This document shows, in pieces, positions 740-11,909 of a stretch of DNA of 41,055 nt. The notes beneath the pieces are model-generated. The model was not told the DNA's origin, made no database searches, and saw only the letters and a list, made by a program, of their open reading frames with translations. Numbering within the stretch: the stretch's first letter is position 1; the number at the start of each line of letters is the position of its first letter. Source of the stretch: a virus (taxonomy: Duplodnaviria > Heunggongvirae > Uroviricota > Caudoviricetes); IMG/VR virus record IMGVR_UViG_2529293142_000021, positions 1 through 41,055 of that record; one strand, 5' to 3'. A program made the position numbers and the translations under genes.

Positions 740-1867
740 TTAAACTGATACTTTAATCCAGTCCTTTCCGCGATCATCGTGGTATCGGTCCGTTTGCCTT
801 TGCGATTTGTGCCCCAGCAATTCTTTAGTATCAATACCCTGATCGCGGTAGAGTCGTTCTGCTAGTGATCTTTGTTCATGAAATGTGGCTGGAGTGCCGT
901 CGCCCCAGTCAAGTGCAGCCTGGTCGCGCGCCTTGCTAAAATTCATCGTTAGCGTGTTAGCCTTCACCTGTGCCCCGCGTTCCGCTTGCGAAGTTGCGCG
1001 AAAAAAATGCACGAGGTAAGGGCTGACGGCATAATCACGGCAGCGGGCGACAACTTCGCGCAAACTCCAATTGATTGCATTACAACGGAGCGCCAGTGGG
1101 ATTGCGACCTTACTCCCTGTTTTTTCCTGCACTACATGCAGATGGTCATCCCAAATATCAGTAAATTTCATTCTTGATATATCGCCTAATCGCTGACCTG
1201 TCACGACAGCAAGTAGCATGGCGTTGCCGAGGTATTTGTGAGTGGCGTCGGCAATATCAAAAATCTTCTGCCATTCTTCCAGGTTCAGGCGTTGCCGGGT
1301 AATTCTGCGCCGAGGCTGTTTAGTTGCCAGTGCAGGGTTGTGCCCTGGCGGAACCTCGCCAGCGTGTTGAGCCTCTTTGAAAACGTCAATGAGCACAGAG
1401 CGGATAACCTGCGCCATTCTGGGCTGGCCCGCAGAAAGATATTGGTCCAGAATCTGCGCTATGTCCCGAACCGTGACATCTGTTATTAACCTCATGCCAG
1501 CGGCCTCACGTAATAGATTCACCGGCTTAAGTTTTTGTTTGTGCGTATTGACCTTAATATCATCGATCTTTAAACGCTCGTCTTGTATTTTCCAGTATCG
1601 GTCCAGCCAGGTGTTAACAGTAATAGCGCCGCCTTTGCTGGTGGAAATGAGGTCTGTAATCGCCTGGACTTGCCTGGCGTGCTGTTCAGCGATCCGCCTG
1701 TTCGCCTCAATTGCGATTTCCGTAGCGACCGTTTCATCAGTGCCGAGTGCATGAAATTTGCCGGTAATCGGGTGCTTGTATCGCCAATAAATTTTTTTAG
1801 ATTTCCGGCTATACAGAGGGTACAGGTTAGGGATTTTTACGTTGTTTTTACGTGGTCTGGCAGCCAT
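740..1867 (-). CDS. int: tyrosine recombinase, phage integrase
   Basis: 375-aa ORF; C-terminal LLGHKS...TDRY tyrosine-recombinase signature; overlaps the xis-like gene as in lambda; same length as I recall for e14 IntE. Confidence 0.9.
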   Translation of the reverse strand: MAARPRKNNVKIPNLYPLYSRKSKKIYWRYKHPITGKFHALGTDETVATEIAIEANRRIAEQHARQVQAITDLISTSKGGAITVNTWLDRYWKIQDERLKIDDIKVNTHKQKLKPVNLLREAAGMRLITDVTVRDIAQILDQYLSAGQPRMAQVIRSVLIDVFKEAQHAGEVPPGHNPALATKQPRRRITRQRLNLEEWQKIFDIADATHKYLGNAMLLAVVTGQRLGDISRMKFTDIWDDHLHVVQEKTGSKVAIPLALRCNAINWSLREVVARCRDYAVSPYLVHFFRATSQAERGAQVKANTLTMNFSKARDQAALDWGDGTPATFHEQRSLAERLYRDQGIDTKELLGHKSQRQTDRYHDDRGKDWIKVSV

Positions 1868-2689: not shown

Positions 2690-3415
2690 TCAGCGCGATT
2701 TAATTAAATTGGTACTTACAATGTGCTGAACATGTCTTTCGTCAATTTTGGCGCTATAAACTTCATACACCTGGTGACCATCAATTGTTTCACCCTCCAG
2801 AGCGCGCATGCTGATATTGTTATCGAGGCGATATTGACTGCGCAGGCCGTGAATTCGTGATTCAGGATCTGGCGATTTATCAAAATATAAGCTTTTATAG
2901 TCATGGCTTAACATTGAATATTCGCTGTCAATCAGTCGTATGTCTGGGCGTTCCCAGCCATTCTCTGCCGCCTGTTCTACGTTAGCATCAATAAAGGCGT
3001 CTAAAAATTCGCTTAATTTAATAACCGGTGGTAACAGCGATTCGTCCATGACTTCTTTAAGCATTTTCTCGGCCTTGACTATCATTGAATCAGCAACACC
3101 GCTTCCGGCGAACGTTTCGCGCAGGCGTTGTGTGATCATGTCGTTGTATCGCCCCAGGTCGATGACATTTTCCATATTGCCTGGCAGGGCTGCGCGGAAC
3201 GCCTCTTTAGTGGATTTTGAAAAATCACTGTAATTAGAGAAAACATCATTAACGATACCGTTAACGCACGATTCGATTTTGGAGTCGATGATTTGCAGCA
3301 TTTTTGGGCTAGTTGAAAACGCAGCAATACGCCCCGCTAATACCTCGCCAATACTCTGACGTGCTAAAATATTAATATCGGCATCATTCAGTTGGTTTTT
3401 ATTTTGTTCGTCCAT
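2690..3415 (-). CDS. hypothetical protein, early-left accessory
   Basis: 241-aa ORF, somewhat AT-rich, between the xis region and the immunity region; no recognisable catalytic motif. Confidence 0.6.
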   Translation of the reverse strand: MDEQNKNQLNDADINILARQSIGEVLAGRIAAFSTSPKMLQIIDSKIESCVNGIVNDVFSNYSDFSKSTKEAFRAALPGNMENVIDLGRYNDMITQRLRETFAGSGVADSMIVKAEKMLKEVMDESLLPPVIKLSEFLDAFIDANVEQAAENGWERPDIRLIDSEYSMLSHDYKSLYFDKSPDPESRIHGLRSQYRLDNNISMRALEGETIDGHQVYEVYSAKIDERHVQHIVSTNLIKSR

Positions 3416-3491
3416 TTAAATTGCTCCTGATTAAATTTAGGTTGCAGAAATCCCCGCCAACGAGTGGCGTAATAATTCGCAGTGTTGCTGA

Positions 3492-3752
3492 TTACTGAAT
3501 TTGTGGTTTGCCGCGCTCGTTTAAAAACACATCAACGATGCAGTTAGATACCCGTTTTTGTTCAAACGGGCGGAGTAAATACAGATTGCCGCCGGTATTT
3601 GCTGACGCGCGCCAGGTCATGCCGTTGTGGCGTAACAGTGTGCCAGGTGCAACGGTGCTGCTGTGCTCCTGTTTTGTGCCGTAGTTACCAATCATAAGAC
3701 CCCCAAAAATTTTTGCCCTTAAGCCGGGCCGCTGAACGTTTTCCCGTCGCAC
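3492..3752 (-). CDS. hypothetical protein, first gene of leftward early operon
   Basis: 86-aa ORF; true start may be the internal MIGNYGTK Met. Lies downstream of an operator-like region at 3775-3802. Confidence 0.4.
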   Translation of the reverse strand: MRRENVQRPGLRAKIFGGLMIGNYGTKQEHSSTVAPGTLLRHNGMTWRASANTGGNLYLLRPFEQKRVSNCIVDVFLNERGKPQIQ

Positions 3753-3774
3753 CGGTGTGCTTCGATGTATACAG

Positions 3775-3802
3775 TGTCAGTTATTGACTGACTTGTGTCA
3801 AT
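3775..3802. promoter_or_regulatory. operator-like cluster (PL-like), TGTCAG/TGACA half-sites
   Basis: TGTCAG ttat TGACTGAC ttg TGTCAA shares half-site motifs with the palindrome upstream of the cro-like gene (4730-4742). Confidence 0.35.
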
Positions 3803-3916
3803 CGCGGGCTTACATATTTTTGCTGGCATTCCTGCTGGTGGAGCATAAGCGCATAAAATCTAAACGTTTTTACGCCATTATTTTTTTGCTGGAGGGGCTT
3901 TTTAGGTGTGCTGAGA

Positions 3917-4270
3917 TTATTTGTCGCGACGTTTAATAGACGTCTGATACTGCTGCTCGAGCTGGTGGAGTGCTGCTATAGCCTCAGAATAGGGGAGCTG
4001 ACGGAACGCGCGGAGTAACCGGATCTCATCGTCAGTGAGAGTGGTTAGATCTGGTGATTCTGTGCCGTAATCCAGCCAGGCTGGGGAGACGATGAGGTAT
4101 TCCGCCAGGGCGGACAATTTATCACTTCGCGGACGCGCGGTGCCGAGGGTGTACCGCCGCGCCATCTCATACGTAACAGAACAGACGGCGCTTAACTCTT
4201 TAACGGTTACGCGCCTTTTCTGCATTTCGGCAGTGAGCCGTTCAGCGAACGCGGCATATTTAGCGGGCAT
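3917..4270 (-). CDS. HTH regulator, CI-like paralog
   Basis: 117-aa protein with N-terminal HTH-like segment (VTVKELSAVCSVTYEMARRY) and a C-terminal region resembling that of the adjacent repressor (LRAFRQLP vs VYRALPP). Confidence 0.55.
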   Translation of the reverse strand: MPAKYAAFAERLTAEMQKRRVTVKELSAVCSVTYEMARRYTLGTARPRSDKLSALAEYLIVSPAWLDYGTESPDLTTLTDDEIRLLRAFRQLPYSEAIAALHQLEQQYQTSIKRRDK

Positions 4271-4276
4271 AAATTG

Positions 4277-4660
4277 TTATTTCTGGCGGGTCACTGGATC
4301 AACATTGTTAGCGTAATAATCGCGTAATGCCTCCAGCCTCATTTGAAACGCTGCGAGCATGTTGCGCTGCTCGATCGGGGGTAATGCTCTGTATACGTCA
4401 ACGAGCGCCCGTTCATCCTCGCTGAGAGCGCCCGCAGTTTTCTCGTCTTTCCCCGTGAGTAGCCAGTCCAGAGAAACATTGGCGGCGGCTGCGATTTTGG
4501 CGGCAGCCGCCTTACTGATAGTGCCTCGTTTGTGCCAGCCGTAAACCGACGACCGACTAACGTCGGCAATCCTGCCCATGTCGGCATCATTCCAGTGATT
4601 GCGCGTCGCTATCTCGTAAAGCCGCGCAGATAGCGGGGTGTCGTACGTTGTTTTTTTCAT
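4277..4660 (-). CDS. phage repressor, CI-like HTH protein
   Basis: 127-aa ORF transcribed divergently from the cro-like gene; HTH-like segment MGRIADVSRSSVYGWHKRG; position equivalent to cI. Confidence 0.65.
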   Translation of the reverse strand: MKKTTYDTPLSARLYEIATRNHWNDADMGRIADVSRSSVYGWHKRGTISKAAAAKIAAAANVSLDWLLTGKDEKTAGALSEDERALVDVYRALPPIEQRNMLAAFQMRLEALRDYYANNVDPVTRQK

Positions 4661-4767
4661 ACGGGCAATTATACGGCTTTACCTGATAGAAACAATTTAT
4701 ATTCCTGTTGACACGCTGTAAGGTTGTAGCTGACAATGTCAGTCATGGATTTACAAGGGGAACGATC
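4661..4767. promoter_or_regulatory. divergent promoter/operator region of the immunity switch
   Basis: Intergenic between divergent repressor and cro-like genes. TTGACA at 4708-4713; perfect 13-bp palindrome CTGACAATGTCAG at 4730-4742; AAGGGG Shine-Dalgarno before the ATG at 4768. Confidence 0.55.
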
Positions 4768-5181
4768 ATGACGGGTTTAGATAGAGCTATAAAAATTATC
4801 GGCAACCAGTGCCGCCTGGCTCTGGCGCTAAACGTGAGCGCCATGTCGGTAAACGACTGGGTGCATAAATACAAGGGCCGCGTTCCATCAGGGCGGGTCC
4901 AGGGAATTTTCCAAATTACCGGCGTTACTCCGCACGAGCTGCGCCCGGATTTGTACCCGAATCCAACGGACGGCCTGACCAGCTCGGCAGAGGCAGCACC
5001 GGTACGTCAGGGGGTGAGTGAGCAGGTGGGCGAATCAGTGCGCGAGTGTGCCGAGGCTCATTGCGCAGTGCTCACAAACGCGCCACCCGAGATTCAGGAG
5101 CGCGAGGCCCTCCAGGCAATAGCAGCGCTGGTCCCGTTTGTGCCTGGTCACCGGGTGTTAATCCTGCCGCGTGAGCAATAA
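4768..5181 (+). CDS. Cro-like HTH regulator with C-terminal extension
   Basis: Start taken at MTGLDRAIKIIGNQCRLALALNVSAMSVNDWV, which has a good RBS; the ORF track starts earlier at 4708. First rightward gene of the switch. Confidence 0.6.
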   Translation: MTGLDRAIKIIGNQCRLALALNVSAMSVNDWVHKYKGRVPSGRVQGIFQITGVTPHELRPDLYPNPTDGLTSSAEAAPVRQGVSEQVGESVRECAEAHCAVLTNAPPEIQEREALQAIAALVPFVPGHRVLILPREQ

Positions 5182-5193
5182 GCGGAGTATCGC

Positions 5194-6120
5194 ATGAGCG
5201 TGAAATTATCCGCGTGGGTTTGGGACGGTTGCGCGGCGGCGGGCATCAAAGGCAACAAGCTGCTGATCATGCTGCGCCTGGCTGATTACGCGAGCGACGA
5301 GGGGATCGCCTATCCGAGCGTGGCAACGATTGCACGGCAACTGGGAGCGGGCCGCAGCACCGTGATCGGGTTAATCAATGAACTGGTGCGCGACGGCTGG
5401 CTAACAAAACGAGAGCGCCGTCAGGGTCAACGCAGCACCAGTAATCTCTATACGCTGAATGTTTCGCGGTTGCGCAGAGCCGCCGCCGAGGCATACGCCG
5501 GGGGTCCAGATTCTGGACGTCCAGAAACTGAACCGCCAGAAACTGAACGTCCAGAAAACCCCAAAAAACCCGGTTCTGAGGGTCCAGAATCTGGACACGA
5601 TCCGTCAGTAAATTCAAAACAAGATCCGTCAGTAGAAAAACCTATTAGTCCGGACGCTACGCAACCGGACGCCGAACGGGGTGATGCAGATGAACTTTTA
5701 AACGGTCACCCGGAGGCTGTGATTTTCAGTGCGAAAAAGCGCCAGTGGGGGAGCCGTGAGGACCTGACCTGTGCGGAATGGATTTGGGGGAAAGTCGTGA
5801 GGCTGTACGAGCGGGCCGCTGAGTCAGACGGCGAGGTTGTACGACCGAGGGAGCCGAACTGGGCGGCCTGGGCAAACGAGGTGCGGCTGATGTGCAACCA
5901 AGACGGCAGGACGCATCGCCAGATCTGCGAGTTGTTCGAACGGGCAAACCGCGATCCGTTCTGGTGCAAAAACATTCTGTCACCGGGAAAGCTCCGCGAA
6001 AAATGGGATGACCTGTCGCTAAAACTCGCCGCGTACAGCGTGCCGCGCGAGGACCAGAATTTTAGAGCGAGCTACGACGACGTGGATTACAGCAAAGTGC
6101 CTGACGGGTTCAGGGTGTAG
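5194..6120 (+). CDS. replication initiation protein, O-like
   Basis: 308-aa ORF directly after cro-like gene; N-terminal HTH-like segment (YPSVATIARQLGAGRSTVIGLINEL); contains an internal cluster of short DNA repeats as expected for an origin inside an O-type gene. Confidence 0.65.
   Translation: MSVKLSAWVWDGCAAAGIKGNKLLIMLRLADYASDEGIAYPSVATIARQLGAGRSTVIGLINELVRDGWLTKRERRQGQRSTSNLYTLNVSRLRRAAAEAYAGGPDSGRPETEPPETERPENPKKPGSEGPESGHDPSVNSKQDPSVEKPISPDATQPDAERGDADELLNGHPEAVIFSAKKRQWGSREDLTCAEWIWGKVVRLYERAAESDGEVVRPREPNWAAWANEVRLMCNQDGRTHRQICELFERANRDPFWCKNILSPGKLREKWDDLSLKLAAYSVPREDQNFRASYDDVDYSKVPDGFRV
5500..5640. repeat. iteron-like repeat cluster, candidate origin
   Basis: GTCCAGAAACTGAAC repeated in tandem (about 5519-5559), TCCAGA(T/A)TCTGGA palindromes at about 5504-5518 and 5581-5596, GATCCGTCAGTA twice (about 5599-5634). 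Encodes the PETEPPETERPE low-complexity segment. Confidence 0.5.
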
Positions 6121-10001: not shown

Positions 10002-10265
10002 CAATAATCACCCACCGGGGCTATATTCACCGAACGCCAGCAAAATCTGGCGTCGGGATTGGTCTCCCGGATATCTACTCAACGCATACCGCGTTAAGCG
10101 GTTTTTTATGCGTAAAGCACGGCTACACCCGCGAGTTATGGTGGGCTGTGTGAGGGCTTCTTAGGAAGCGCCGGGTTTGAGTAGCCGGTAAGACCAACCT
10201 TGCACAGTTCACCACCAGTCGATTGGTCTCGACGGTGGTGATGGTTAACCCACCGAGGTGACGCT

Positions 10266-10847
10266 ATGACTACTCAAATCACTATTTCTGATATCGCCAT
10301 TCATCAGGATAACGACGGACGTTATTCTATTAATGACCTGCACAAAGCATCCGGCGCTGAACATCGCCACCTGCCTAACTACTGGCTGGAATTGCAGCAA
10401 ACCAAAGAGTTAATCGAAGAGATCTTAAATACCGGAATTCCGGTAATTACTCCACCAGTGGTAAGCAGAAAGGGCCGTAACGGCGGCACCTACGTCTGCA
10501 AAGAACTGGTTTACGCCTACGCAATGTGGATCAGCGCTGCGTTCTCTCTCCGTGTAATCCGTGCCTACGATGCGCTGGTGGCGGAAAACAGCCAAAATAA
10601 CGCAATTACCGCCATCCCCACCAGCCCACACAGCTACTCGATCGTTACCTCATTTTGCGACGGCGAGCCGATTTACAGTCGTGTTATTCAACCTGGCGAA
10701 ATTTTGATTCATCGCGATGACCATATCGAACTGATGGCCCGCGCAGGCTACATGACGATCCACTGCAATGAGCTGGAAAAAATGGGCGCACCTGAGCTGG
10801 CGCGCCGCATCGAGGCAACGCGCAGAATGATGGATATCTGGGCGTAA
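10266..10847 (+). CDS. KilA-N domain protein, possible antirepressor
   Basis: N-terminal YSINDLHKASG...LPNYWLEL...GTYVCKELVYAYAMWIS pattern typical of the KilA-N DNA-binding domain. Confidence 0.65.
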   Translation: MTTQITISDIAIHQDNDGRYSINDLHKASGAEHRHLPNYWLELQQTKELIEEILNTGIPVITPPVVSRKGRNGGTYVCKELVYAYAMWISAAFSLRVIRAYDALVAENSQNNAITAIPTSPHSYSIVTSFCDGEPIYSRVIQPGEILIHRDDHIELMARAGYMTIHCNELEKMGAPELARRIEATRRMMDIWA

Positions 10848-11621: not shown

Positions 11622-11720
11622 TATTTGTCGCGTGAATATATTAGAGCATTATTTCCCCAGATTAATTATTTGAGACAGCAATGCCATAAAATGATACTGT
11701 ATATTTGTACAGTATCTTGT

Positions 11721-11909
11721 ATGACGGGGGATAACGTGAACGAACGCGAATTATTAGATATTGTCCGGCCTGACGGGCGTTATGAGCTGATTAGCCAGGG
11801 CGGTAAATTTATTGTGAGGCCGTTACGCGCTGACGAAATTATTATTTCCCCCGAATCACACAGAGAGTGCAAAAAACGTTTCAGTAATACGCAAACTGAA
11901 TTACAATAA
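11721..11909 (+). CDS. small hypothetical protein
   Basis: Internal start MTGDNVNERELLD of the 11625 ORF. Confidence 0.3.
   Translation: MTGDNVNERELLDIVRPDGRYELISQGGKFIVRPLRADEIIISPESHRECKKRFSNTQTELQ

Follow-up and report, generated by a model that had tools for sequence, protein, structure and literature searches.

A stretch of 41,055 nucleotides from a tailed virus of the class Caudoviricetes (IMG/VR record IMGVR_UViG_2529293142_000021; hereafter the window) represents a lambdoid prophage of the Rac/Qin type, whose immunity region contains two adjacent leftward genes for short helix-turn-helix (HTH) repressors, gene A (4277-4660, minus strand, 127 aa) and gene B (3917-4270, minus strand, 117 aa), the latter starting 6 nt after the stop codon of A. 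Sequence comparisons suggest that A acts as the resident repressor through paired operators, and that B is an orphan cargo repressor conferring a second immunity specificity, a reading to which we give slightly better than an even chance. From the conservation of operators and repressors among relatives, we infer that immunity in this prophage is maintained by A, which seems on its own to govern the two early promoters, while the probable task of B is to guard the cell against phages of another group. The immunity region is largely ordinary for Rac/Qin-type prophages, its unusual element being the orphan second repressor.

Gene A and the operators of the resident switch

The product of gene A is a DicA/PaaR2-like short repressor that matches Pfam Phage_CI_repr (PF07022) at 36.8 bits (gathering cutoff 22) and is predicted to consist of a five-helix HTH, a disordered linker and two C-terminal helices (AlphaFold2 mean pLDDT 81.8). 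The product of gene B is a second repressor-type protein, matching Pfam HTH_3 at 24.6 bits (cutoff 23), and both HTH genes described in an earlier note made from these letters alone are therefore present. The divergent gene called cro-like in that note is likewise confirmed: it encodes a 137-aa protein of the YdaS type (4768-5181, plus strand; Pfam YdaS_toxin, E=3.6e-13), with a weak match to P22_Cro (E=0.002) and a match to PHROG 35 (transcriptional repressor), and stands first in the rightward early operon. In many prophages of E. coli, Salmonella and Enterobacter, a homolog of A (57-92% identity) faces a YdaS-type cro as the only repressor, such cases numbering hundreds in E. coli and Salmonella, and the A-family profile matches the N-terminal domain of the phage 186 CI structure 2fjr (E=7.9e-7). 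No match to Peptidase_S24 was found in either A or B (117-127 aa), both of which end in a two-helix module. The DicA profile NF007257 (cutoff 101) gives 36.2 bits for B and 32.7 bits for A, with about 110 of its 135 positions aligned in each case; A and B are DicA-like in architecture and are not members of the DicA subfamily.

Comparison with relatives defines the operator unit as an inverted repeat of 19 bp that reads TGTCAG-N7-CTGACA. When at most two mismatches are allowed, this pattern has five matches in the window against 0.74 expected, a number reached in none of 100 shuffles (the composition-based expectation is 1.5), and all but one of them are arranged as two abutting pairs placed exactly at the two early promoters. 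On the right, OR-a (4717-4735, TGTAAG-GTTGTAG-CTGACA, one mismatch) lies over the spacer and -10 of PR, and OR-b (4737-4755, TGTCAG-TCATGGA-TTTACA, two mismatches) over the PR start region. On the left, OL-a (3775-3793, TGTCAG-TTATTGA-CTGACT, one mismatch) covers the spacer and -10 of PL, and OL-b (3796-3814, TGTCAA-TCGCGGG-CTTACA, two mismatches) has a left half that coincides with the PL -35. A putative weak third site on the right (4670-4688, TATACG-GCTTTAC-CTGATA), which overlaps the PRM-like -10 and has four mismatches (three in L001, an E. coli relative), falls below statistical significance; its position is suggestive, and we take it as a candidate counterpart of OR3.

The perfect 13-bp palindrome CTGACAATGTCAG, on which the earlier note had based its operator, is exact at 4730-4742, but it proves to be the junction of two abutting 19-bp operators, being composed of the right half of OR-a, one base and the left half of OR-b. 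Perfect 6-1-6 palindromes number 18 in the window against about 10 expected, so that one alone is unremarkable; taken as an operator unit with up to two mismatches, the 13-bp palindrome gives a single other match, which is unrelated, and the 19-bp model replaced it. The left-hand sites also exist as proposed, with TGTCAG at 3775-3780 and further GTCA/TGAC motifs as far as 3801.

The PR-like promoter (4708-4737, plus strand; -35 TTGACA at 4708-4713, 18-nt spacer, -10 GACAAT at 4732-4737) is the sole sigma-70-like match in 3400-5000, agreeing at 10 of 12 positions. The PL-like promoter (3773-3801, minus strand; -35 TTGACA at 3796-3801, 17-nt spacer, -10 GACACT at 3773-3778) was read from the sequence, the promoter scan having picked up the PR-like one only; it matches the relatives' PL promoters in register and lies directly upstream of a conserved leader. 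A PRM-like promoter (4661-4673, minus strand), also read from the sequence, has its -10 TATAAT at 4668-4673, 7 nt before the ATG of gene A (4658-4660), which implies a leaderless A-B transcript; such a leaderless layout has been shown experimentally for paaR2 of CP-933P (PMC8630535). Genes A and cro are 107 bp apart, with the PR-like promoter and two 19-bp sites between them. The region thus has the layout of a CI/Cro-type switch, in which a divergent repressor/cro pair is separated by repeated operators and the same operator type recurs at the leftward promoter, and its identification as an immunity region stands.

The leader of the PL transcript (3696-3766, minus strand) has the form ATCGAAGCAC-loop-GTGCGACAGGTAAACGTTC...CCCGGCGATAAGGG and is conserved in about 40 distinct loci of different immunity types, having been seen in L004-L023 and in many of L024-L144. 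Its first hairpin combines an invariant stem with a variable loop, and the second shows two compensatory changes. The leader could be an RNA element, nutL-like or of another kind, the covariation being weak and the variation too little to decide.

Relatives in Salmonella (L012-L015) separate the contributions of the two genes. They keep A (92% identical), the OL pair and an OR whose core is identical, and at the PL position corresponding to OL-a they carry the perfect operator TGTCAGGTAATAACTGACA, which is TGTCAG-GTAATAA-CTGACA. Gene B persists there only as a remnant, in which the start codon ATG has become ATA and a deletion of about 200 nt has removed the whole HTH, with an additional 20-nt deletion in L012. 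The retention of A and its operators while B decayed indicates that the TGTCAG operators go with A, and suggests that B is dispensable for the switch. The earlier suggestion that the two proteins share operator half-sites therefore holds in that the sites occur at both early promoters, but not in that they serve both proteins, since they go with A alone. The half-sites also differ among A-family lineages: in the P0015 phage (L020), with a repressor that shares 67% identity with A, the OR-a position is occupied by a perfect TGTTAG-N7-CTAACA, and a third lineage has TGTTCAC-N5-GAGAACA. The succession of TGTCAG, TGTTAG and TGTTCA in three lineages indicates that the half-site changes along with the A-family protein.

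Gene B belongs to a separate repressor family

Alignment of the two proteins reveals distant homology extending over the HTH and the C-terminal module, with 19% identity in the profile alignment (profile-profile probability 98.7%, E=1.6e-16), and BLASTP aligns 33 residues only, at 36% identity (E=7e-4). The C-terminal similarity noticed earlier is thus real. An origin by recent tandem duplication, with both copies binding TGTCAG half-sites at PL and PR, would fit two HTH proteins of similar size that are encoded head to tail and have a C-terminal motif in common. However, the low identity and the short BLASTP alignment, the different recognition helices of A and B, and the grouping of the two proteins with separate families, each with its own operators, contradict a recent duplication as far as sequence comparison can tell, and we regard it as very improbable; the "duplicated repressor" of the earlier note is accordingly set aside. 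Its other proposal, a repressor plus a paralogous regulator controlling both early promoters, survives in part, as the two are homologous HTH proteins with a shared C-terminal module, but control of the early promoters by B does not follow. By these comparisons A and B are distant homologs from separate families, each of which as a rule supplies the only repressor of an immunity type of its own.

The family of B comprises the 'VTYEMARRYTLGTAKPR' repressors, which have the invariant recognition region V[TS]YEMARRYTLGTAKPR. The window B reads VTYEMARRYTLGTARPR at this motif and keeps all 21 family-invariant alignment columns. Its predicted architecture is the same as that of A (AlphaFold2 mean pLDDT 81.9), from the five-helix HTH through the linker to the C-terminal helix pair. 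A PDB sequence search with the B-family profile gave no match, and no Foldseek hit of the B model reached E=0.001 (best 0.015), the nearest structures being generic 434 Cro/P22 c2 HTH domains and short repressors of the SinR/phi106 type, with no specific match to the C-terminal module. PADLOC gave weak RmrA matches in the HTH region of B and none for A, and recognised no known defence system. Identity of B with RacR was considered and rejected, the RacR operators being TTAGGC-N3-GCCTAA (PMC9638921).

Loci L004-L011 have the B homolog as their only repressor; it faces a YdaS-type cro, is situated upstream of kilR, and is accompanied at OR and OL by repeated TCTAC-N5-GTAGA sites, paired 21-22 bp apart and overlapping the promoters (for example, the OR of L004 at 4920-4975, with TACTACAAAAAGTAGAA). 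A survey of one genome per species, together with viral contigs, yielded a further 120 loci of the B family, spread over Enterobacterales, Pasteurellaceae, Acinetobacter and beta-proteobacteria. Of these, 118 have a divergent gene directly upstream, whereas the window B instead follows A in the same direction at a distance of 6 nt. With a scoring matrix for which three other loci had served as training set, 117 of 119 B-family loci show a site of 13 bits or more just upstream. In the 41-kb window, by comparison, the best B-type score is 10.3 bits, outside the regulatory regions, against 15-23 bits for the training sites and a mean maximum of 11.8 bits for random sequence of equal size; the simple pattern CTAC-N5-GTAG likewise matches the window at chance level. 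To judge from the window, B is an orphan, with an intact HTH and without a cro partner, cognate operators or a promoter of its own.

Across the surveyed B-family loci (L024-L144), one recognition helix and one operator type, with three OR sites and two OL sites, are nearly unchanged among proteobacterial groups, and on this survey such stability is unusual for an immunity specificity. A single locus, L027 (Phlomobacter), has both A-type and B-type genes; it was rejected as a tandem pair, as it consists of two complete adjacent cro/repressor modules.

An alternative scenario, the nearest to the paralogous regulator of the earlier note, is that B is a partner or modulator of A, forming hetero-oligomers through the C-terminal module that tune cooperativity, looping or antirepressor sensitivity at A-type operators. 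The homologous C-terminal module, the identical predicted architecture and the placement of both genes 6 nt apart in one operon are consistent with such a role, and the structural neighbours of B include short repressors on whose C-terminal domains small proteins act as controls (SinR/SinI and the phi106 repressor/AimX). However, the Salmonella relatives have A alone with unchanged operators, hundreds of A-family prophages do without a second gene, and the last helix of B is the part most diverged from both families. Moreover, B keeps an invariant recognition helix for other DNA, which a pure protein-binding modulator would not need. A modulator role is thus unlikely in our view.

Is gene B functional?

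The frame of B is open in the 24 contigs read, and compared with the E. coli relative L001 it shows three synonymous differences and one nonsynonymous difference. Identity between B and any primary repressor known from its family is about 50%, which implies that B is old, yet it is intact. This bears on a further scenario, in which B was left behind when two immunity modules recombined long ago, has no function and remains intact in E. coli only because too little time has passed. The deleted pseudogene in the Salmonella relatives, the shortened linker and diverged C-terminus of B, the replacement of its N-terminus at the junction with A, and its lack of a promoter, Shine-Dalgarno sequence or operators of its own would all suit a relic, and the substitutions are too few to prove selection. 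Against this stand the open frame, the three synonymous differences beside one nonsynonymous, the retention of 21 of 21 family-invariant residues, the confidently predicted fold, the intactness of so old a gene in all the contigs read, and the independent origin of the same stacked layout in mEp237, a viable coliphage. We consider a relic improbable, if somewhat less so than a modulator of A.

Several observations weigh against B as a working cargo repressor with a second specificity. The selection signal on B amounts to four substitutions only. Relative to the primary repressors of the family, its linker is shorter by about 25 residues and its last helix is diverged, so dimerisation or cooperativity could be impaired. 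No Shine-Dalgarno sequence is visible before B, and its translation therefore depends on coupling to A. B has decayed in the Salmonella relatives although B-type phages occur in Salmonella, and any benefit of B would therefore be conditional or weak. At the DNA level, with L008 as the query, B-type prophages closely similar to that locus were found in 0 of 5,426 complete E. coli genomes, so that targets of B in this host are possibly uncommon. The window is possibly not the whole prophage, and a B-type site past its right end is possible. With regard to A, the 19-bp pattern was derived only after the sequence had been seen; perfect copies at the same positions in relatives provide independent confirmation of it.

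Proposed mechanism

With A as the resident repressor and B as cargo, dimers of A would bind the paired abutting 19-bp operators that overlap the PL-like and PR-like promoters (-35, spacer and -10), and this occupancy would shut off both the kil operon and the cro/replication operon, thereby maintaining lysogeny. A and B would be transcribed together, probably without a leader, from the PRM-like promoter, with B translationally coupled to A across the 6-nt gap. Because A has no cleavage domain, an antirepressor is expected, and induction would presumably proceed through it and not through cleavage; inactivation by antirepressors is known for DicA/Rem and for the Gifsy repressors (PMC10448788, PMC3121763). 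B stands between the repressor gene and PL, a slot that other lambdoids use for protective cargo (rexAB in lambda, paaA2-parE2 in CP-933P). Acting in trans, it would silence the early promoters of any B-type phage that superinfects, and so provide the lysogen with a second immunity specificity. A role in trans is the most likely one because B-type operators are absent from this prophage.

Two candidate antirepressor modules lie further to the right. A perfect LexA box, TACTGTATATTTGTACAGTA, occurs at 11695-11714, is preceded by a terminator-like hairpin and lies 6 nt upstream of a 62-aa open reading frame (ORF; 11721-11909, phrog_34610, function unknown), whose product is a candidate for an SOS-controlled small antirepressor of the Gifsy type. 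In addition, Rfam identified an isrK Hfq-binding RNA and a C4 antisense RNA above threshold (10034-10108 and 10134-10219), and the ORF behind them (10266-10847) has matches to Ant/anti-repressor PHROGs. By analogy with P1 immI or Gifsy-1 IsrK, this isrK/C4-Ant arrangement appears to be a second antirepressor module.

Setting of the prophage

At the left end of the window are an integrase gene (740-1867, minus strand) and, with it, an excisionase-like gene. The host gene icd adjoins the element in E. coli assemblies that hold near-identical copies, and in these copies a DUF7424 lipoprotein-like gene (1-696) lies between the integrase and icd; it is possibly prophage cargo beside the attachment site. 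The first gene of the leftward early operon (3492-3695, minus strand) encodes a Kil/KilR-like FtsZ inhibitor, matching the Kil family PHROG 294 (E=5.5e-20) and an NCBIfam FtsZ inhibitor model (E=1e-15). In the rightward direction, an O-like replication gene (5194-6120, plus strand) contains two near-identical perfect palindromes, TCCAGATTCTGGA (5505-5517) and TCCAGAATCTGGA (5583-5595), which by analogy with lambda are probably origin iterons.

Searches for the immunity region (window 3400-5300) in a phage collection of 50,697 records gave no long DNA match, and in the 5,426 complete E. coli genomes only CRISPR spacers matched it at the DNA level. Spacers in the CRISPR arrays of 36 complete E. 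coli genomes match kil at 97% identity (window 3540-3576) and gene A, in its 5' part, at 100% identity (4609-4643), indicating that E. coli has met this phage family. Despite these spacers, the prophage was found in none of the 5,426 complete genomes.

Significance

At least two independent cases of stacking are recognised, A and B in the present prophage and gp39 and gp38 in mEp237, and SEN34 may be a third. Stacking an operator-less heterologous repressor behind the resident one could thus be a recurrent and so far undescribed route to a second immunity specificity in enterobacterial lambdoid prophages, by which one cargo gene could block a very broad set of temperate phages; this generalisation is tentative, and we place it somewhat short of an even chance. 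In the window, the added specificity would be that of the unusually conserved pair V[TS]YEMARRYTLGTAKPR with TCTAC-N5-GTAGA, which is common to phages of Enterobacterales, Pasteurellaceae, Acinetobacter and beta-proteobacteria. If B acts in the way proposed, repressor genes can themselves be defence cargo that widens host immunity from a lysogenic operon, and because there are no matching operators, this would carry no cost in regulatory cross-talk. Such genes would form a cheap, sequence-predictable class of prophage-encoded defence, which would help to explain mosaic immunity regions, and extra HTH genes beside cI-like genes should then not be annotated as parts of the resident switch. If B is inert, nothing would set the locus apart from other Rac/Qin-type immunity regions beyond a relic in decay. 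In addition, the comparisons yield a testable operator code for DicA-like short repressors, with 19-bp sites of 6-7-6 structure whose half-sites change with the protein, and one repressor-operator pair that is conserved across several families of Proteobacteria.

Comparison with known systems

The closest layout is that of CP-933P from E. coli O157:H7, with the regulators PaaR2, YdaS and YdaT (PMC8630535), which likewise has a short non-cleavable HTH repressor with a leaderless transcript, a divergent YdaS-type Cro, matching operators at PR/PRM and at the distant PL, and extra genes between the repressor gene and PL. However, the cargo of CP-933P is the paaA2-parE2 toxin-antitoxin, whereas here it is a second repressor-type protein. 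CP-933P also has YdaT, which is missing here, the cro-like protein instead having a C-terminal extension, and its operators are four 18-bp repeats in place of the abutting pairs of 19-bp TGTCAG-N7-CTGACA sites. In CP-933P, the logic of the cargo slot has been shown experimentally (PMC8630535). DicA/DicC of Qin and the Gifsy repressors (PMC10448788, PMC3121763) have in common with A and B their size class, the lack of an Ala-Gly cleavage site and a C-terminal helical module, but they are described as single genes, whereas the genes here stand in tandem and the pairing with an antirepressor is predicted.

A parallel to the role proposed for B is found in the mycobacteriophage Mcgavigan, in which an acquired Bxb1-like repressor is not needed for lysogeny and gives heterotypic superinfection immunity (PMC12700041). 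Like B, it is an extra repressor that is related to another immunity group and occurs beside a resident repressor. However, Mcgavigan is an unrelated actinobacteriophage whose extra repressor belongs to a separately acquired operon, whereas B follows the resident gene after 6 nt and has a predicted function.

Tandem DicA-like genes in the cI position are also present in coliphage mEp237 (gp39/gp38; L227, 32154-33033) and Salmonella phage SEN34 (gp43/gp42; L146, 2471-3283), in pairs that are 45-55% identical, compared with 19% for A and B. In mEp237, the operator type of the first gene, gp39, is GTAAA-N7-TTTAC, which is perfect at OR and PL. Relatives of gp38 (72-74% identical, with the same recognition helix) are the only repressor of the superfamily in 77 of 80 viral contigs, and TAAACA-N3-TGTTTA sites lie upstream in 74 of these 77; such sites, with 0 or 1 mismatch, are absent from the complete mEp237 genome. 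A scan for relatives of SEN34 gp42 returned near-identical copies only, so that a comparison of sole and tandem occurrences is uninformative there. In the literature, for which coverage is incomplete, no functional description of tandem or second repressors in lambdoid phages was found, including those of mEp237 and SEN34, nor was repressor stacking in enterobacterial lambdoid phages found described.

The cI-rexA-rexB operon of lambda also resembles the present arrangement, with protective cargo between cI and PL, a leaderless PRM transcript and the same OL/OR logic. It differs in that lambda CI has an S24 autocleavage domain, which A lacks, and three 17-bp operators on each side. The cargo differs as well, as lambda Rex excludes phages by abortive infection and not by repression, the means by which B would act on superinfecting phages.

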